NCBI GenBank assembly: GCA_029717555.1
Contig: JAMDHS010000036.1
Location: 62,001-126,000, forward strand
Reading direction: 5' to 3'
DNA length: 64,000 nt
From: Peribolospora baueri
Taxonomy: Eukaryota
Made by a program: the position numbers and the translations under genes
Part shown: in pieces, positions 39,357 through 50,825 of the stretch
Layout of the letters: the number at the start of each line of letters is the position of its first letter
Position numbering within the stretch: position 1 is the stretch's first letter
The notes under the pieces: generated by a model
Databases searched by the model: none
What the model saw: the letters and a program-made list of their open reading frames with translations, nothing else
What the model was told of the DNA's origin: nothing

Positions 39357-41628
39357 TTATGCGCTTCCTTCGTGCCTCTGCACACGTTCGTCCATGAGCT
39401 TCCGGATGATCTGACCCAGCTCCTCGCTCTCGGCCTTGGCCTCCTCCGCTGACCCGCCAAATACGACCGCCATCTCTTCTAGGGACCGGCCCTTGGTCTC
39501 CGGTACGAGGAAAAGGGTGAAGAAAAATGCGATGAGGGCAAAGGCGGCGAAGAAGATGTATGTGCCGAACCCGATGGTCGCCAGCATCCGTGGCGTCACC
39601 AATCCGATGATGAAGTTGCTCATCCACGTTGAGCTGTCGTCAATTTGTGGGACGACGGTCAGGCAGAAAAGGAAGAGAAAAAAGTTCGTCACTGACTGTT
39701 CATTTGTCTGTAATCATCATCTTACCTGTCATGAGGAGAGCGCTTACCTGGTGGTCACAGAGATAGCAGGAGCACGAGTCCTGAGGGAAAAGATTTCCGA
39801 GGGCAATACCCAGCCGATGGGCGCCCAGCTAAAGGAGAAGAAGACGTCGTATATGTCTGGGAGCGATTACAAAAACGAATCAACGCCAGCGGCAAAGACG
39901 CGCGTGTCGACGGAACGCCAACGGAGGTCGCAAATCAGGCTCACAGATGAACGCAATGGCCACATGAGCCGCCATCGGGTGTTCGCTCAAGTTGGTTTTG
40001 TAGCCGCCGACGATGCCGCCAACGATCAACAAGGAGCACATGGTGCCGAATGCACCGGTCATGAGAAGGTTTTTCCGACCCCAGACGTCGAGGAACAGAA
40101 CGGCGGGGAGGGTGGAAACTGTGTTGACGATGCCGTATACACCCGTGGCAAGCACACTGGTGGTGGTAGCGTTCATTCCCACCTGCTGGAAGATGGTCGG
40201 AGCATAGTAGATGATCCTGTTGACGGAGAGAAAGGACGTGTCGCCGGGTGAGATCAGACGACGAGCGAGCATGAAAGGAAAGGAGGGAGCCGGCACATAC
40301 GCATTGCACCCGATGAACTGCTGGAAAAACATGATGGCGCTGCCGATGAAGACCCTCTTGAAGTTGCTCTTGACGGTGAGGAGCTCGACATATTTAGCCA
40401 CCCAAGCCTTGGCCATGAAGCCGCCGTCCGTCACGCCGGCGTACCTCTCCGTAGAGAGCATGCGTTCGTAACGAGCGACGGCACGGACCTCGTACCACTC
40501 CTGGAGCACGGCGGGGTGGGTGGGTGGCTGCCTGCGCAAGCGAGAGAGGACGCGCAACGCCTCGTCGTCCCTGCCCTTGTCAGCGAGCCACCTAGGGGAG
40601 TAAGGCAGGAAGAAGGTTCCGACACCGAGGATGAGGGCAGGTAGGATCTGGAAAGCGAGAGGGAAGCGCCAGGAGGCATCGCTCTGGCCAGTGCAGCCTC
40701 CGGCCGGCACGTCGTGGTAAGGATCGAAAGTCGGCTGGCCGTTGGATACCGGCCCAGTGTAGGGCGTTCCCGGCGCACAGACGACTCCGCCGATATGGGA
40801 TGTCCCGTACTCGATCCAGTATGCGACAAGAATGCCGATGGTGATGCTCAGCTGCTGAATGGCAACCAGGCTTCCGCGAACCGCTGCAGGGGCGATCTCG
40901 GCGAGGTAGAGGGGCACGACGTGCGTCAAAGCGCCGACGGCTAAGCCAGCGACGACTCTACCAGCGATGATCATGGCGACGTTCCGGGCACCCGCTTGAA
41001 GAGCGGCGCCGACAACAAAAATGACGGTGGAGACGAGGATGGAGCGCTTGCGACCGATTCGGTCGGTGGGCACGCCGTTGACGAGAGAACCAAACCAGGC
41101 GGCTGCCAAACGTGATGCGAAAGGGGCCGCTCATTGAGAATGGTGGTGTCGGAGCTCGCATAGCAGGGGCGCGCGCACACTCACCGAGCAGCAGGGACGA
41201 GACGAGCCATCCTTTAAAGGCCGAGTCCATGTAGGCACGGGGGAAAGCCGCGCCAAAGCTTTCCATGACCAGGATGGAGCTCATGGCGCCTTGATCGTAG
41301 CCAAACAGAAAACCGCTGTCGGGGAGGTCCGCGTAGCCAGATGAGATGAGGCAGGGAGGGGCGAAAGAATGAGCTACGCTTTGCGAGGCAAGAACTGGGC
41401 GCCACGGCCCGGCTGGTCGACTCACCCGATGGAAGCAAAGATGGTGACGCCCAGAACGAAAGGGTTGGCGACCATGTTGCGGAATCCGGACAAGACGGAT
41501 ACGGTGCCCTGATCATCATGCGTGACCAGCGCGCTCACCAACTCGACGCCGCCGACAGGCAACTGAGCTTTCTCGTCGACGTGGTCAATCTCGACTGGCG
41601 CCGGGACGTTGTCGGCCTTTCCGCCCAT
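39357..41628 (-). CDS. MFS sugar-porter family transporter (quinate permease-like), intact and spliced
   Basis: GGFLFGYDQG, DRIGRK, PLYLAEIAP..VRG, PYSPRWL, QQFIGCNAIIYY, WVLPSEIF and PETKGRSLEEM. Confidence 0.95.
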
Positions 41629-41709
41629 GATCAACGAAAAAGCAATTGTGGATGTGGAGAGGTGAGAGGCTTTGCGGGGTCGACGAGGTGGGGTAGCGGA
41701 TTGCCGGGA

Positions 41710-41715
41710 TTTATA
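41710..41715 (-). promoter_or_regulatory. Candidate TATA box of the MFS transporter
   Basis: TATAAA on the minus strand about 82 nt upstream of the ATG, in GC-rich surroundings. Confidence 0.5.
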
Positions 41716-43016
41716 CCCCTCCGGTCAGCCAAAGTAGCGAGGAAAAGGGCGCCCCACGTTGGAAGCCATCCGTCATCCGGTGCCGTTCGTCAACCGCGGA
41801 TATATGTTGTCGTCTCTCCATCATCGGCAAGGCATTACGAGAGCAGGAAGGCAGGAACAAGGTCTGCCCTGGAGGATATACCGCCAAAGCTATACCCGAC
41901 AATCGACCGACAAGCGAGGGTACCGATGGCGACCGTCTTCATGACTTGGAGCCCCGCCCCGGAATGCTTCCGCCATTTCCATCCGAAAGAACGCTTCTTT
42001 CTCTGTTGACTCGATCGCAAGACCATCCATCTTTCGATCATATCAGATGTCTTTTAGTCGCCGTCGAAGTCCCGATATGCCGTTCGCTTGCTCTTCCGTG
42101 CAATCATCGATAGAGCTTTCCGGTCCGAACACGTCCGCGGAAGAAGCCAACGGCGTACATGCTGCGGAGGGATGAGAGACTGGACTGGCGGGCTTGCATC
42201 AGCTTGCTCCTCTCGCCGCAACCCAGCCAGGCCATGGATGAGCAACCACGTCTTCTCTGACCACGCCTTCGTTCTCTCCCCAGCGGACGGCCACGGACAA
42301 CCGCCGTCGCCCCGTGCCCGGCGCGTGCACGTAGCTTGAAGGCGCTCGAACGCTATCGAAGCCGGCCGGCCAGCCGGCCCGCCAAGCATAGCGTCCCCAT
42401 CGACGAGCTCGTGCAATGGATGGAAGATCTTGTTGGCTTGTCTATCTCGCCGTCTTACGTCATGTCGCGTCACGGGGGCAAGGCTACCTTCTAATCATCG
42501 TCGCCTCCTAGATGTGTCATCGCGAGCTCGTACGGTGCTGCTCTGTATGCACGATTCCCATACAGGTCGGCAACCACGGCGGTCCCCGTTCATGGGGACG
42601 GACGAGGATACTACGAGGATACTCGGTCGACAAGGCTCTGACAGCATGGCCGAGAAAAGCGGCGCCTGATTTCGGAAAAAGAGCCCTGGCTAGGCCCCAG
42701 GTGGTGCCCGAATCACCGCAGTCTCAGGAGTGCTGACAGACGGAGATGGGGAGGAAAGTGGACGGACAGACACTGGTACGACGCCACAGTTGTTGGCGAC
42801 ACTAGGCGCCTGGGCGCCGGCAGACGGCAATAGAATGGAAGCTGTGCACAGGCATGGCGACAAAGGAAACCCGGGAGGCACGATACGAGTCCCACGACCA
42901 GCAACGTCAAGCACAGGACAATTTCGAAAAGGGGGAAAGGCAAAGGCAATGGAGCGCGCTCACGTTTTGGAAAGGACCGTTGATGGAAGACGAGGACTTG
43001 TATACTTGGAACGGGA

Positions 43017-43569
43017 TCAATACCGGCAAGTGCAAGGCCTTGAACACGGGCAAATGGGGACATATGCAGTGCCTTGTACGATAGACGGACGGCGATGTGA
43101 GCAGAAAGGTCCGAGGTTGCGTTTTCATATGCCGATGAGGACGTTTCGAATGGAACGACGAAGATGCGGTGAGGAGAACTAGGAACAGCCGAGAAAAAGA
43201 GCCGACGAGGACGGGTGGTGCGAACGGCAGATTCGCACCGACGTTACTCACAACGGCACCTGGGATTCTGGCAACTGAGGGTATTTCCGGGGGCCGGGGC
43301 GGTCGTGGGCCCGGGGATGGCGCTGAGGCCCTCGGCGCGGGTGGGAGAAGGCTCGCGGGCGAAGACCCTCGTTGCCGCCGGGCTGGTCGGTTTGCGGGCC
43401 TTAGCATTGGGATCGTGGCAACGGGGGGAAAGCTGGTGCAAGACGAGCAGGTGGCGCAAGGGATGGTTATTGAGCGTGCGGTGTTCGGAGCGTTTTCAGT
43501 TCTGAGCGGGAGGATTTAAGGCGCGATAAATGAGCCGTAGTTATGAGAGGGGTCGAGAGGGCTCACCAT
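43017..43569 (-). CDS. Small Cys-rich metallothionein-like protein, 79 aa, 3 coding exons (43569-43567, 43432-43252, 43072-43017)
   Basis: TATATAA at 43663-43669 and AAAACACAATG followed directly by a GTGAGC donor. The spliced product ends SCQNPRCRCTAYVPICPCSRPCTCRY*. A further intron-like segment lies in the 3'UTR (42842-42963). Confidence 0.62.
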
Positions 43570-43662
43570 TGTGTTTTGTCCGATGACTGCAGAATGGGAT
43601 ACGAAGGGCGTGGGGAGAGAGAACGGGGCGGGACACAAGGGCGGACGCCGGGCCCGGCCTGC

Positions 43663-43669
43663 TTATATA
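43663..43669 (-). promoter_or_regulatory. Candidate TATA box of the metallothionein-like gene
   Basis: TATATAA(G) about 94 nt upstream of the ATG at 43569, followed by a pyrimidine-rich leader. Confidence 0.55.
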
Positions 43670-44540
43670 GACGTTTCGTCCGGCCCAATCTTCCTTCCAC
43701 GTCAGGATGCGGACGAGCGTGTTCCCATGCCATCGTCTCGGGACGCTAAGGTTCTTCAGAACACCTCCTTGAAGGAAAAGCCATTTTGGAGCGGCGGGAC
43801 AGCAGCAGGCGAGAGTAGCCTGACAACGAGGAGGACGTCAACGACAACAACCGCATGCCCCTTGCACCCAAGCAAGCAAGCTCCTGGGAATCCGGCATCG
43901 GGGGTTGCGTCTGAGCTGGGAAGAGGTGTGCCATGTCATGAGCTGCCATGTCACAAGGTCATCAGAGCGATCTCGACCGACATCGAGACCCCAGAACCGG
44001 CTGCGCATCGGACTCGAGCTCGGCTGCGAAGAAGCCGAAGAAGCCTGTCTGTGGCGATGCTACGCCGACTCGGACGGAGCGATGGAAGTTCGGCGGCTCT
44101 GCCTTTTTTCTCCTAGAAGCGAGGGTGGTCTGACGACACGCCGTCGATTGCAGTCGTGCGTAAAGCGCAAGATGGCCGAACCCAAGCGCAACAAGCAGAA
44201 GGCAAGCGCACAACAAGAGTCTATATCCACGCCAATATGGTTGTTAATCCCTCTATTGCGCTGCAGATACCTCGGAGGTAGGCGGCTCTAGCACCCCTTG
44301 TTCCCCGATCATGCGGGTGGTTGGAGATGAATGGATGAATGGACGGGATGGGGAGCGAGAAAGCGAGAGCAGGTTGTTCCCGTTACACACTTCACCATCC
44401 TAGGATCAGCTTGTTTTGTCTTCGGTCCTCAGCAAGGCAGAGAGCCTCACGCTTTCATTGTCGCTCCTTCCCCCCTCCTTCCCTCTTCTGCTTGCGGATC
44501 CCTCGGCGCTGTTTGAGTGCCAGGGGATCAGTCATACGTC

Positions 44541-47500
44541 ATGGCCGGCGTACCGTCCACCTCTGCTACGCCCGCTCGGCTTCCCCAACTGCCCTCGGCA
44601 CACCACCTGCGAGAGACGCTGCTCTCGGCGCCCAGAACTTGCTCCTTTCGCTTCACCCCGCACGCTCGGGATTGGCTCCTCACCGAGGCCTTCGCCTCGC
44701 TCTTTGGCGATTACGTCTTCCTCTTCCTCCCCCCTCACATTGGCGGCCTGGGCAAGGATCTCAAACTGAGCACGATCCAGAGGGAGGAGGGGAATCAGTG
44801 CGTGTCTGAACGAAGGGGCGGACCGTGCGGTCACGTCTTCAGCAAGGGCGAAAGCGTGTACAGGTGCAAGTGAGTGGCGCGTTCATTCCACCTTCTCTTG
44901 ACGGCGGTGGCGGTGGCGGACGATATACTGTATAGTACCACCTCTTCCCTGGGGCGATGCACTTAGCTCTCTTTCCTTTTTTTGTTCTCTTTCAGGAACT
45001 GTGCCGCGGATGACAGCTGCGTGTTCTGCTCGCGGTGCTTCCATGCGACCGATCACACCGACCACGACACCACCTTTTCCATCAACTCTGGCCATGGCAA
45101 CTGTTGCGACTGTGGCGACCCAGAGGCATGGAAGTGCGACGTCCATTGCCCGTTTCATTCTCCCACGTCTTCCGACCGTCCAGAGTCTTCTTCCTCCCCC
45201 CTCTCCCCTTCCTCGACCACCTTCCCGCCCGGCTTCGTCGATGCCGTGTCGGCCACGATCGCGACTGCCATCGACTTCATCATCGAGACGTTGGAGTGGT
45301 CTCCCGCAGAGCACGCACCACCGACCGACAAACAGGAACTCTTGGCGCAGCCGCGGAGCGAGCAAGACATAAGGGAGAACCGACTGACGACATCCCGCGG
45401 AGACGAGGATGACACCATGGGGATGGCACCCGAGGCCTGGGCGGTGGTGCTGTGGAACGACGAAAAGCACAGCTTCCCCGAGGTGATCCAGCAGGTTGTT
45501 GACGCCACCGGTTGCGAGGAGTCTCGCGCGAAAGGCGTCGCTGACAGGGTACACGAACATGTGAGTTCTGCCGTCCCCCTTCCCGGACCGGTCGCTCGCT
45601 TAATCCGTTCAACATGAAACTATTGATCTAACCGGACGTCCTGTTTCTACAACAAGGGTCGGGATATCGTCGAGGTGTCCAGTGACATTCAGCGCCTTCT
45701 GTCCGTCGCCCGCATCATCTCCCACATCGACCTCGCTGTGACCGTGCGGTCCGCCTACCAGACCTTCCAAGAAGAGACCGCAGGAATGCTAATTGGATGG
45801 CTCCAGGACCTCGCGTCTTCTACGCTCTACGTGGGCAAGGATGCCCCTTCGAGTGATGCCTACCTCTTGCGTTCCGTCGTCGCCGAACAACTCCTCAAAC
45901 CCTGGAGACCGACGAAAGAGATTCACCGCTACCGCATGAGCGAAGACTTCTTCAACCTTAACGACGCTACCAAGTTGGACGCGTTGGTTATCTTCGACAG
46001 GAGAATGTGGAAGGAGGCAAGGTTGACCTTGAGAGACGTCTACACGCGATCCATGAGTGGTTTGGACGCGAGACTCAGGTTCGGTGAGTTTGCATTCCTC
46101 GTCCCCTCTGCAGCGGCCCCGTTTGCACGACATGCTGCTCAAACTTGTGGCCGATGTTCTCTGTTGGAAAAAGGCATTAATTTCGAACGGATGTATCCTC
46201 GCATGGTCGAGGAGTTCATCTTGCACGATCGCGAGCCCGAGATGTCCGTCAGTTTCTTCACCGTCCAGCTATTCACCGTACCGAGTGTCGCCGTTCATCT
46301 GGTCCGCGAGCACGGCTTCCTGGAACGCCTTCTCACCATCCTGAGGACGTTCTTCACCAATCAAATATCAGAGAGACGGTTCATCCTCCCTCCTCCACCT
46401 AACGCCCAGGTTTCCAGCGAGAGCATGGGATATCGCCACAAGCGCTACTTTCGCGTTTTTGACGACCTCAAGTACTTGCTTTCCGCTCCCGGCGTTCGGG
46501 CCGAAATCGCACGAAACTCGGAGCATCTCGAACACTTCCTCGACTTTATCTCTCTCTTCAACTCGATCAACCCCAACGAGCGTGCCGTCACTCAGCACGT
46601 CGAGTACGAGAGCGATTTGTGGGTGCATGTCTTCAACACGACCGTCCAGCTCGCCAAGGCCTGTCGACAGTTTGGTGAATCCTACGCGGCCGGCAACAGT
46701 GCCGATCTTAAGCATGCGCTCCTCGTCACGGTTGGTCGCATCTACGAAGCCATCCTCCGACTTCATGTGCAGAACCCAGTTCTGTATCCTCCGACGAGGA
46801 TGAAGCAGGTCCATTTCGGATTCGGAGACGCGCCGGGCAGGTACTGCATCGTCGACTTTGTCGTCGATCGCTCCCCTGTTAGCTTTCACCACCCCATGCA
46901 CTGGCTACTCGCCGAACAGCTCAAGCACGTGAACATGCTCACTAGCGAAGCGATGCAGGCCTTGGGATTCGAGGATTTGAAGCAGGTACTCGAGCGCCAG
47001 GTCGGCGGCTTTCTGCAGGTCGTCTTCGATTATCCCATCAGAGGTGGGCATCCCATCGCTGATGTTTGTTGACGTTTTCCAGCGTTGTGGATCAGGCCAA
47101 GAAGCTGAATCAGATGTCTACCTCTTTCCCCCCCTCTTACTTCCGGTCTTCAGTTTGCGTCATGCTCGCTCAGATCAAGGCTGGATTATGGGTTCGAAAT
47201 GGGCTCGCTATTCGCGGACAGCAGCATCACTACCGGGAGAATGCACTGCGCGAGTGGATGTACGACCAGGACCTCTACCTCGTCCAGGCCTCCTTGGTCG
47301 TCATGGACCCCAACCTGGTCTTGGTCACCTTGCTCGATCGCTTCTCCCTTCTCGAATGGTTCTCGGACATTCATGAGACGGATGCACATCCCGTCTACCA
47401 AGAGCAGACAGCGTTCATGCTCGAGGAGTTTTTGTTCCTTCTCATCACCTGCCTAAGCGAAGAGGCCAATGCGGGCGCTTGGTCGACGGCACAGGCCATT

Positions 47501-50500
47501 CAACGCGAGGTCGTCCATGGCCTCGCCCTCGGTCAGAGCTCCTATTCCGAGCTGCTCAAACGCATTCCCGAGAGGCTGACGAGCGACGCGGCGTTTGACA
47601 GGGTACTTACGGAGGTGGCCAAATACCGTCCACCTGACGGCACGGCGGACGTCGGCATCTACGAGCTCCATGAGGAATATTATGACCAGGTCGAACCCTT
47701 CTTCTACCATTACTCGCGCAACCAGAGGGAAGAGGCCGAGCAGATCGTCAAGCGACATATCGCCGCCAAGACCGGAGCCAAGGACCCTGTCATCGTTCCC
47801 AAGCGCCTCGACATTCCCGTCGGTCCCTTCTCCGTCCTCGGCCATACCTACCGCTCGCAGGTCTTGCTGCAGGTTCTCTTCTTTGCCCTCGCCAACGTCG
47901 CGGCCAGCAAGAGGGACATCCCGGATTCGCTCGTGGACGAAACGCTCCACCTGATCATGCGAGCCCTCATCGAGGAGCCAGACCGGTTCGCTCCGATGGC
48001 CTGCCAGGTCGCGTTCGCTCGGAACGAGACGCTGGTCGCGCTCCTTTGCTCTTTGGAGGTCGAGCCAAAGTTCAAGCCATTCAAGCCAAAGATTTCGTGG
48101 ATTCTGGACGAGATGACGCGAGAGATGCCCGCGGACGTGGCGGCTAACCGGAGACAGCGGCCCTCCGCTCCGGCCGTACAGGATACCGACCCGAGGCGTG
48201 AGGCCGCTAAAGCGCGACAAGCGGCCATCATGCAGAAGTTCGCGGCGCAGCAGAAGGACCTCCTCGACGCTTTCGGTGAGGATGAGGATGACATGGAGGA
48301 CGTCGAGGACGAGGAGGTGTCGCAGAAGAAGACGCTGGGCAGTTGTATACTCTGTCAGGAAGAGCTGGACGATACGCGGCCGTTCGGCATGCTCGCTTCC
48401 ATCCAGCCGAGCAGACTGATCCGGTCCACGCCAATCCAGAAGCCTCAGTACCTGCAAGAGTGCGTCGATCTGCCGCTCTCGCTAGATCGAAACAACCCGG
48501 TTACCGGTAGGCGGGTCATGGGCCAGGCGGCCCACAACGGCGCGTCGACCGTCACGATGGAGGAGAGAGGGTTTCCGAAGAGCGACCATCACTTCGGCCT
48601 ACACGCCTCCGCTTGCGGACACATGATGCACTACCGCTGCTTCGAGACGTATTGTAGGTCCATCGAGCAGCGGCAGCTGCACCAAGTCGCCCGCAATCAC
48701 CCGGAGAACCTGCAGAGACACGAGTTTCTGTGTCCGCTGTGCAAATCGCTCGGTAACGTCATCTTGCCTGTTCACGAGATCGCGGTCGTCATCGACGAAG
48801 CGCCTCTGTCGGATTGGGTTCGACGGATCAGCATCGACATTTTGAAGAGCTCATCTCCAGTCGGGCACGATTATCAGGAGACGCAGAATGGCACGGGCTC
48901 CTTCACACCCTGGTTCTTGGACACCCTGCCCCCGTTCCACTCCCGCGCTCAAGGGGACCCGGCCATGCAGCAGGTGCTCGATCGTCTCCTCAAGGTCGTC
49001 CATCCCATCGCATCTCAAACGAAGCCAGTGCGCGCCGAGCAGCATGCCGGCAACATCCTTGCTCCCCCTTCTCTCAAACTGTATCTTCCGGAGGAGCTGT
49101 GCGCGTACACCATCGCCTCGTACGAGATCGCCCAGCGCGGCATGAGCCCGCCGAACGCGGACGCGTGTGCCACGTCGAGCGTTGCAGACAGCATCCCCGC
49201 CTCGAGCTTGGAGCTGCTCAAGAGTCTTTTGGGCGCCCTCCGTCAGCTCGCCGTCACTGGGGAAGCGGGTGAGCGAGGATTGGCAGTCATGCGACAGGGC
49301 CTGTTGAAGCGTTTGCACCCGCAGTGGGGCGGGGACGACTCTGTGCGCCATCCTCTACTCCTCCGGGATCCGCTGACCATGCTCATCGAGACGGCGGTGA
49401 TCGCCCCAGAGGCGATCGGACACGTCACGTCCCTCATGTACTACGTCACCCTCGTCCAAGTCATCTTCGGTCTCGCCCAGCCGGGGCTCTGGCCGACAGG
49501 CGCCCCTGGCGTTCGCGCCTCTGCGACGCTGACGCGCCCAAAGGCGGACGCGGACGCAGATGCGGCTCTGTCCGTCTTTGCGGACATACGATGGATAGCG
49601 TCGACAGTCGTCGGCTACGTTGGCTACGCTAGGGGAAACCTCAACCTCGGCTTCGACCATCTCGACGACGCTACGCTCGCAAAGCTCGTCTACTCCTACA
49701 CGCTGCCTTTCCTTCGTCGCGCCGCCATATTGCACAGGGTTGTCGGCGCCCGCTTTCAGTCCCCGCCCGCGGTAACGGTGGACGCTGAAGCGAGCGAGTA
49801 CGCACGTCTGTTGAGTGCGCTGCGTGTCCCGCCGCCTGCGGAAACTCTGTCGCCTCGAGCGGAGCGGCAGAGCACGGTGGCGCACCTGCTCGAAGGCTGG
49901 ACCAAGCACGCCTACGCTCAGCTCTCCACTCTCTTCCGCCCCACGCCGCTGCACTTCGCCGGCCCGACCTCCAACGGCAGTGGCGGCTACCCTGCTCCCT
50001 TCTCGGAGCCCACGCTTCGATTGGAGCACCCGCACGTGTACGAGCTCCTGTCGCTGCCCAAATCGCTCTCGACGCTCCTTGAGGAGAACCTGCGGCGGAC
50101 GTGCAAGCAGTGCCAACAGGTGCCCACTTCGCCAGCGGTGTGTTTGCTGTGCGGGGAGTTGCTGTGCCATCAGAGCAGTTGTTGCGCAGATGAGGAGAAC
50201 GAGCAGCGGATGGAGTGTAACCGGCATATGGATGAGTAAGTCGGCGGTTTTGTATTTTGGGCTTATAGGCCAACGCTAGAGGGAACATGTGACGGACTGA
50301 CCGGGCCGGTGGATGCCCTTTCTATCCCCGCGGTACCTGTTTTCTACTTCACTATCCCAGATGCGGGGGCGCTGTCGGGATCTATTTCGACTTGAAGAAG
50401 AACGTCATCTTCTACCTCTTCGCCGACAACGGCGCGTTCAGCGTGCCACCCTATCTCGACATTCACGGCGAGGTCGATTTTATGTTCAGGTGAATGACTC

Positions 50501-50825
50501 GCTTCGGCCTGGTTCTGCAATGATCTTTCGGCTCCTTGTTCTTACATTTGGCGGCTCTTCTTTCGACCAGGCGAGGACGGCCGCAGTACTTGCACCAGCA
50601 ACGCTACGACGAGATCCGCAAGACATGGCTCAGCCACGGGATCGGGACATACGTGGTTGGTCGTCGTTTCGGATGCGCTTCCTCGTGATCCCGCCCGTTC
50701 ATGCCCCTTGACATCCCCCTTCCTCCGCTTGCTTTTCTCGACGTCCCTTTGGCGTGTCTCGATACGTACCTCAGGCGCGCAAGATTGAAAGTATGCTCGA
50801 CGCCGGCGGCTGGACCACCTTCTGA
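44541..50825 (+). CDS. UBR1: N-end rule E3 ubiquitin ligase (N-recognin)
   Basis: UBR box (CGHVF..GE.VYRCKNC..DDSCVFC..CF...CCDCGDPEAWK), ClpS-like VVLWNDEKHSF, VSFHHPMHW, WVRNG, RING-type CILC...CGHMMH..C...EFLCPLCKSLGN and C-terminal PYLDIHGEVD. Confidence 0.97.

Follow-up and report, generated by a model that had tools for sequence, protein, structure and literature searches.

A small gene on the minus strand of the Peribolospora baueri genome, with a TATA box, a first exon that codes for the start codon alone and two coding introns, lies in the gap between an MFS transporter and UBR1, within the 64,000-nucleotide stretch of DNA that was analysed as a whole (the window). Judging from its sequence, the product appears to be one of an expanded family of metallothionein-like proteins in which a leader precedes a seven-cysteine module, and not a lone metallothionein of the Paxillus type. 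The module seems to be present in at least ten copies, in about nine genes of this genome. The reading that we favour, at a probability of roughly 55% and by analogy with characterised cysteine boxes, is that the protein would be a specialised metallothionein-like metal buffer or carrier, bearing a metal-thiolate cluster, probably of Cu(I), on a disordered leader.

The assembly of P. baueri comprises 22.7 Mb in 668 contigs, and its sequences suggest that the host is a divergent basidiomycete, far from sequenced relatives; the best outside match of its UBR1 in a protein search has 39% identity. Codon, intron and splice models were trained on the window and on 100 kb of the same genome, with the target gene largely excluded. 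The predicted introns of the window have a median length of 105 nt, which is long for a fungus, their donors mostly read GTGAG[TC], and the pyrimidine tract follows a weak branch site and precedes the AG. Among 128 predicted introns with common donors, 13 are at least 179 nt long, and the ends are CAG in 92, TAG in 25 and AAG in 11. Of the AAG acceptors in UBR1, OPT and LAMTOR5 introns that the preliminary description had cited as precedent, that of the UBR1 intron 45561-45656 is supported by six of six homologues. The position of the target beside UBR1 and the transporter looks incidental. The locus and its neighbours consist of the following features.

39357..41628, minus strand: MFS sugar transporter, the downstream neighbour, with its own TATA-like site (Pfam Sugar_tr)
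42842..42963, minus strand: probable 3' UTR intron of 122 nt, GTGAGC..CAG, beginning 54 nt past the stop; donor 10.1 bits
43017..43072, minus strand: coding part of exon 3, with the second module half C-x-C-x2-P-C-x-C and TGA; aligned with paralogous last exons
43020..43273, minus strand: seven-Cys module, residues 55-79, cut by intron 2; 28% Cys
43073..43251, minus strand: intron 2, 179 nt, GTGAGT..AAG, phase 1 within the third module Cys codon; branch-like GCTCAC at 43102-43097
43252..43432, minus strand: exon 2, with the Pro/Arg/Thr-rich leader and the first module half C-x-N-x2-C-x; based on codon and Markov scores
43433..43566, minus strand: intron 1, 134 nt, GTGAGC..CAG; branch-like GCTCAA at 43475-43470
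43567..43569, minus strand: coding part of exon 1, the start codon alone; donor GTGAGC 9.3 bits (median of predicted introns 9.1)
43663..43669, minus strand: TATA box TATATAA, 100 nt upstream of the ATG
44541..50822, plus strand: UBR1 N-recognin E3 ligase, a divergent neighbour (Pfam zf-UBR, ClpS and PRT6_C; homologue tblastn; start by the self-trained gene finder)

The spliced reading frame of the target, 240 nt long and free of internal stops, encodes 79 amino acids. In 61 kb of DNA predicted to be intergenic, the word TATA[AT]A is present at 9 places, and positions 41700-44500 contain exactly three minus-strand GTGAG[CT] donors, all of which belong to the gene model. The preliminary description had postulated a hidden three-exon gene between the transporter and UBR1; this gene translates as proposed, with 79 codons, and passed the null tests, and the TATATAA, the ATG-only exon 1, the introns of 134 and 179 nt with their branch-like GCTCAA and GCTCAC, and a third intron-like segment past the stop (GTGAGC..CAG, 42963-42842) all lie where it had placed them. 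Its further claim that one C-x-C is created only by the splice junction fails, since the unspliced T|GT at the third module Cys encodes Cys too; read-through there runs into a stop two codons later (ORF 43244..43495). The segment after the stop is probably a 3' UTR intron, although its acceptor is uncertain, being without a branch candidate within 60 nt.

Exon 2 has a synonymous codon score of +9.2 bits in the frame of the model (95th percentile of open non-coding frames, 4.0; coding median, 4.4), and its Markov coding score is highest in the same frame. Exon 3 by itself scores as non-coding, with -2.1 bits from synonymous codons and -10 bits from the Markov model. None of 40,437 simulated donors in a chance test led to seven Cys with three C-x-C pairs, and 6 led to seven Cys; 164 kb of the genome hold 527 real donors, and of these the target donor alone gave seven Cys in 25 spliced residues. 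The AAG junction of the target is credible because paralogues splice at the same Cys-codon junction, which is found in eight other modules.

We regard it as most improbable that the locus is non-coding or is spliced or read in some other way, so that the seven-Cys product is never made. The routes to such an outcome are the acceptors TAG 43179 or AAG 43005, which give a longer, Cys-poor protein, the -1 frame from ATG 43407 or 43733, and CAG 43502, which gives Met-Asn-stop. Two longer rival frames are indeed open across all three introns and would explain the third one; TAG 43179 and CAG 43502 score well as acceptors (the pyrimidine score of the former is 7.0, vs 2.1 for the AAG acceptor of intron 2), and the self-trained gene finder missed the exon 3 model and took AAG 43005 instead. 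However, the extra exons that these routes require are non-coding by score (-4.5, -2.9, -8.6 and -6.2 bits), TAG 43179 lacks the T-N-A branch candidate that is present in 121 of 128 predicted introns, the Cys-codon junction recurs in the paralogues, and basidiomycetes do have 3' UTR introns (available text of PMC5006051). The AAG acceptor of intron 2 has CTCAC at -26. That the seven-Cys product is the true product of the locus can be held with high confidence. The in-frame acceptor AAG 43400, with an equal score (12.1 vs 11.8 bits), would shorten the leader by 11 residues and give a protein of 68 residues. Within intron 1, CAG 43504-43502 is a strong in-frame acceptor with branch candidates, and a possible on/off splicing switch.

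The 79-residue protein contains 8 Cys, at positions 6, 55, 60, 62, 69, 71, 75 and 77, which amount to 10% of its residues, and three aromatic residues. The seven Cys previously noted in the last 25 residues are there with the spacing then given, 4-1-6-1-3-1, and Cys 6 is to be added to them for the whole protein. Six of the seven module Cys form three C-x-C pairs, and the chain ends two residues past the last Cys. The leader of 54 residues has a slightly negative FoldIndex and three S/T-P sites, and the hydropathy of the protein indicated no signal peptide or membrane segment. The single exons tested had no match in Pfam, and neither did the main exon of the canonical-looking metallothionein gene L244 of the same genome; Rfam gave 0 matches, and PDB searches gave insignificant ones only; the sole PDB match of a profile of the second module half is a metallothionein, 1QJL (E 0.25). 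Upstream of the target there is no clear copper-response element, with no CuRE-like word and one MRE-like word at -300, and no word common to the promoters was conspicuous.

Disulfides, redox sensing or S-acylation, in place of a metal cluster, would be compatible with the basic, aromatic C-terminal tail and with the low overall share of Cys. We nevertheless judge such a role of the Cys very improbable, as the module has an odd number of them, the protein has neither a secretion signal nor a CaaX end, and C-x-C pairs are what one typically finds in metal-thiolate clusters.

When the host genome was searched for similarity with protein and DNA queries, the locus itself and one weak low-complexity match came back. 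The family surfaced through codon patterns only, generic Cys patterns being swamped by simple repeats and giving no excess over the control. The pattern C-x-N-x2-C-x-T(G) followed by a donor had 10 matches in the genome vs 1 in the control, and nine of the ten are spliced onward, across introns of 83-179 nt, to C-x-N-x2-C-x-C-x5-9-C-x-C-x2-9-C-x-C, a completion reached by 2 of 20,000 simulated sequences under a rule with ranges adjusted to the members. These nine modules carry the intron within the codon of the third Cys, seven of them, including the target, in phase 1 and two in phase 2. One more module, L048, brings the number to ten; its intron, in phase 2, comes four codons later and separates Cys 3 from Cys 4. 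It reads C-x-N-P-x-C-x-C, intron, C-x-C-x-K-P-C-x-C, stop, and the long exon upstream of it has a coding score of +10.8 bits. L192 resembles the target in using AAG as an acceptor and in having a first exon of ATG alone. No intronless member was found in the genome by pattern search.

Module-bearing contigs: C109, C175 (L048), C295, C328, C329, C644 (two in tandem), C657 and C665 (twice)

The pattern of the second module half, with 15 genome matches vs 11 in the control, shows no excess in number. The spliced architecture, defined as three Cys in an exon upstream together with an acceptor and a stop close by, is found in 4 of these 15 (target, L048, L065 and L192), in 31 of 20,000 planted patterns and in none of 119 among the metagenome matches listed. 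One to three aromatic residues occur in nine of nine modules and a Pro before the sixth Cys in seven of nine; the invariance of the Asn is circular, as it was part of the search pattern, and members without it would escape. The spacing in the second half varies among members (x2, x7, x9), from which it follows that the geometry of the cluster is not fixed, in keeping with a flexible chelator.

The Cys conservation that the preliminary description had taken as a check on the gene is thus provided by paralogues within the same genome, and the long Pro/Arg-rich leader to which it had drawn attention is present, as a family trait and not as a peculiarity of one protein. Where they could be modelled, the leaders have 54 (target), 69, 73, 32 and at least 61 residues, and those of the C665 pair may be short. 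In the one pair compared, target and L048, the likeness of the leaders is not significant (278 of 3000 shuffles in global and 1276 of 3000 in local alignment), and both have [ST]-P-R-C about 50 residues ahead of the module. CC pairs are found in the leaders of L048, L217 and L213 and also in the open frame upstream in L220, while the leader of L192 has one Cys, so that leader Cys are not constant across members.

Two of the layouts bear signs of internal and local duplication: L218/L219 on C644 are tandem modules about 85 residues apart in one larger gene, and L221/L222 on C665, separated by 3.3 kb, are neighbouring genes whose modules are rich in Trp and have longer spacings. L065 (C219, 1746-1486, minus strand) is a divergent member with a first half C-x-C-x3-C and a poor codon score, upstream of which another frame runs into a stop just before the module; it may be decaying. 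An open frame some 1 kb upstream of L048's module contains a run of about 13 His codons (L057, C175, 1829-1625, minus strand), which may be a microsatellite or a piece of the 5' end of the L048 gene.

Among the candidates rejected, L070 is another frame of an ordinary exon and was dropped from the alignment, L214 is the antisense of a gene, and L045-L047, L058-L063, L066, L068, L069, L191, L193, L196-L201, L205-L212, L242 and L247 represent chance, repeats or other frames. Inspection one by one left aside L049, L050, L053-L056, L223-L241, L243 and L246, and one of the pattern searches covered the best 100 of 153 matches.

The genome also encodes more ordinary metallothioneins. L244 (C220, 1802-1360, minus strand) is a canonical-looking three-exon metallothionein gene for about 64 amino acids with 15 Cys and no aromatic residue; it has a TATA box upstream, and the CTATATAAGCAG context is common to it and to the TATA box of the target. 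L195 (C668, 1295-974, minus strand) encodes a metallothionein-like protein of 34 amino acids with 6 Cys and an acidic leader, and has a TATA box and an ATG-only first exon; its second intron interrupts the Cys codon that precedes the last exon, at a junction shifted by one base from that of the target. The similarity between the target and L195 is no better than the Cys pattern alone gives (2643 of 3000 shuffles). In addition, L194/L202 (C36, minus strand) is a copper-fist transcription factor of the Ace1/Mac1 type, which has several CC boxes and a box of the form C-x-C-x3-C-x-C-x2-C-x2-H. Since the genome holds L195, L244 and this factor, the target family is an addition to the usual metallothionein kit and not a replacement for it.

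In the mechanism that we propose, a metal cluster, most likely of Cu(I) and possibly of Zn or Cd, would be wrapped by seven thiolates, of which six belong to C-x-C pairs. Cu(I) is suggested because C-x-C-rich seven-Cys boxes have an established chemistry, the box of the Cryptococcus metallothioneins binding Cu5 (available text of PMC4755600). More tentatively, the conserved Asn, Pro and aromatic residues might give the cluster a more defined fold than that of classical metallothioneins, and the variable, low-complexity leader might serve as a disordered tether by which location, partner or turnover is determined. The protein would be cytosolic and act as a low-capacity specialised buffer or carrier, with bulk detoxification presumably left to the ordinary metallothioneins. 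This proposal agrees with an architecture common to fungal metallothionein genes, with the occurrence of C-x-C-x3-C-x-C in the Neurospora pattern and with the presence of a copper-fist factor; the Cys content of 10%, the three aromatic residues, spacings that differ from both published fungal motifs and the lack of a clear copper element speak against it.

Possible as well, if only tentatively, is that the module represents a small metal-cluster domain of a kind not yet described, distinct from classical metallothioneins and from CXC domains alike. In this basidiomycete lineage it would have been duplicated onto at least nine unrelated disordered leaders to yield metal-gated tags or sensors, and standard annotation would have missed it since the module is always split by an intron. 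Metal loading would then fold the C-terminus and thereby switch what the leader determines, whether location, partner or stability.

Searches outside the genome used single exons or exon halves, mostly of the leader, and their blanks accordingly weigh little. Exon 2 had no candidate among proteins of 33-107 amino acids, a search of 1.84 billion protein representatives gave one low-complexity match, and the ESM Atlas gave two blanks. In metagenomes, 596 stretches shared a word with the query, with none confirmed, and the DNA pattern of the second half had at least 119 matches, most of which look like off-frame readings of other genes. A profile built from three last-exon frames gave one candidate, and none scored. 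The literature search, outside which lay most subscription papers and with them much of the work on fungal metallothioneins, found no description of the motif. A wider distribution of the module among fungi is quite possible.

Knowledge of fungal metallothioneins stems mostly from Agaricomycetes, Tremellales and ascomycetes. If the family is what it appears to be, its ten copies of a seven-Cys module with conserved Asn, Pro and aromatic residues, borne on long variable leaders and coexisting with ordinary metallothioneins, would form a branch of a new kind, placed between flexible chelators and domains with a folded cluster. The motif together with the fixed position of the intron offers a direct handle for finding the family in other fungal genomes, and a module of 25 residues is easy to make and test.

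Measured against general metallothionein criteria, the target is a small protein with C-x-C clusters, yet it lacks the high Cys content and the scarcity of aromatic residues, having 10% Cys and three aromatics where the criterion used is 25% Cys and no aromatic (available text of PMC4755600). The closest comparison is with the Agaricomycete heptaCys metallothioneins, which have 32-59 amino acids and the motif C-x4-C-x-C-x2,3-C-x-C-x4-C-x-C (PMC12508003, available text and Table 1). Both have seven C-terminal Cys that open with C-x4-C-x-C and include three C-x-C pairs, a very short first exon, an intron that parts the seven Cys 3+4, and a basic residue and a Pro after the second pair. They differ in spacing (x6 and x3 in the target, x5-9 and x2-9 in its family, vs x2-3 and x4), in the leader (54 residues vs about 10), and in the low Cys content and the aromatic residues of the target. 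PiMT1, AcMT1/2, HcMT1/2 and LbMT have a micro first exon and a phase 2 intron just before the fourth Cys (PMC12508003 supplement); the target shares the micro exon, whereas its intron is in phase 1 inside the codon of Cys 3, and it is L048 that has a phase 2 intron between Cys 3 and Cys 4. Motif spacing and length (79 amino acids, or 68, vs 32-59) both place the target outside this group.

It is improbable that the target is the local orthologue of these proteins, of the PiMT1 type, with a lengthened N-terminus and a role in bulk Cu/Cd detoxification. The start of the module, the C-terminal place of the seven Cys, the micro exon and the intron of L048 would favour such orthology; against it stand the spacing, the aromatic residues and the Cys content, the presence of two more typical metallothionein genes (L195 and L244) and a similarity to L195 that does not exceed the Cys pattern. 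The close kinship to Paxillus PiMT1 that had been proposed is not supported, in view of the x6/x3 spacing, the Asn, Pro and aromatic residues and the intron inside the third Cys codon; what survives of that metallothionein-like reading is the seven-Cys C-terminal architecture, without the PiMT1-type identity.

The Cu-thionein box of Neurospora, Cryptococcus and Tremella, of which the Neurospora type reads C-x-C-x5-C-x-C-x3-C-x-C-x2-C, likewise has seven Cys, a core with x5 (x6 in the target) and x3, and the potential to occur in tandem with spacers, as far as the available text of PMC4755600 describes it. Its unpaired Cys follows the core (x2), while that of the target precedes it (x4), and this position of the seventh Cys on the opposite side sets the target apart from the type; moreover, linkers in the target are bulky and aromatic instead of rich in Gly, Ser and Ala, and mostly one module is present per protein. 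As to the Cys boxes of Ace1/Mac1-type factors, C-x-C-x3-C-x-C is also contained in the host's own L194/L202, but there it runs on into x2-C-x2-H inside a large DNA-binding protein.

The CXC superfamily (MSL2, tesmin/TSO1, pre-SET), whose consensus has nine ligands, CX[C/H]X2-13CX4-7CXCX5-60CX2-4CX1-2CX2-15CXN in the available text of PMC3447885, resembles the target in being a small Cys-cluster domain with conserved non-Cys residues and in accommodating the stretch C-x4-C-x-C-x6-C. With seven ligands instead of nine, and with neither the N-terminal C-x-[C/H] nor the C-terminal C-x-N, the target falls outside it. These resemblances bear on the rather unlikely alternative that the module folds into a small structural Zn-cluster domain of a CXC-like kind that binds protein or nucleic acid, the genes then encoding adaptors or regulators; a Zn3 cluster with nine ligands could be completed by extra Cys or His of the leader (Cys-His in the target, Cys-Cys in several paralogues). 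In its favour are the conserved Asn, the recurrent Pro and aromatic residues, the tandem modules in the larger gene L218/L219, the CC pairs ahead of the modules of L048, L217, L213 and L220, and the fact that the genome already has ordinary metallothioneins. Against it are the missing ligands, the inconstancy of the leader Cys and the absence of a Pfam match for the single exons tested. The reading as a metal buffer or carrier, which we prefer, draws on the fungal boxes for its chemistry. The target belongs to the module family of the genome itself, defined by the Asn pattern and by the intron in the third Cys codon, both of which it displays.
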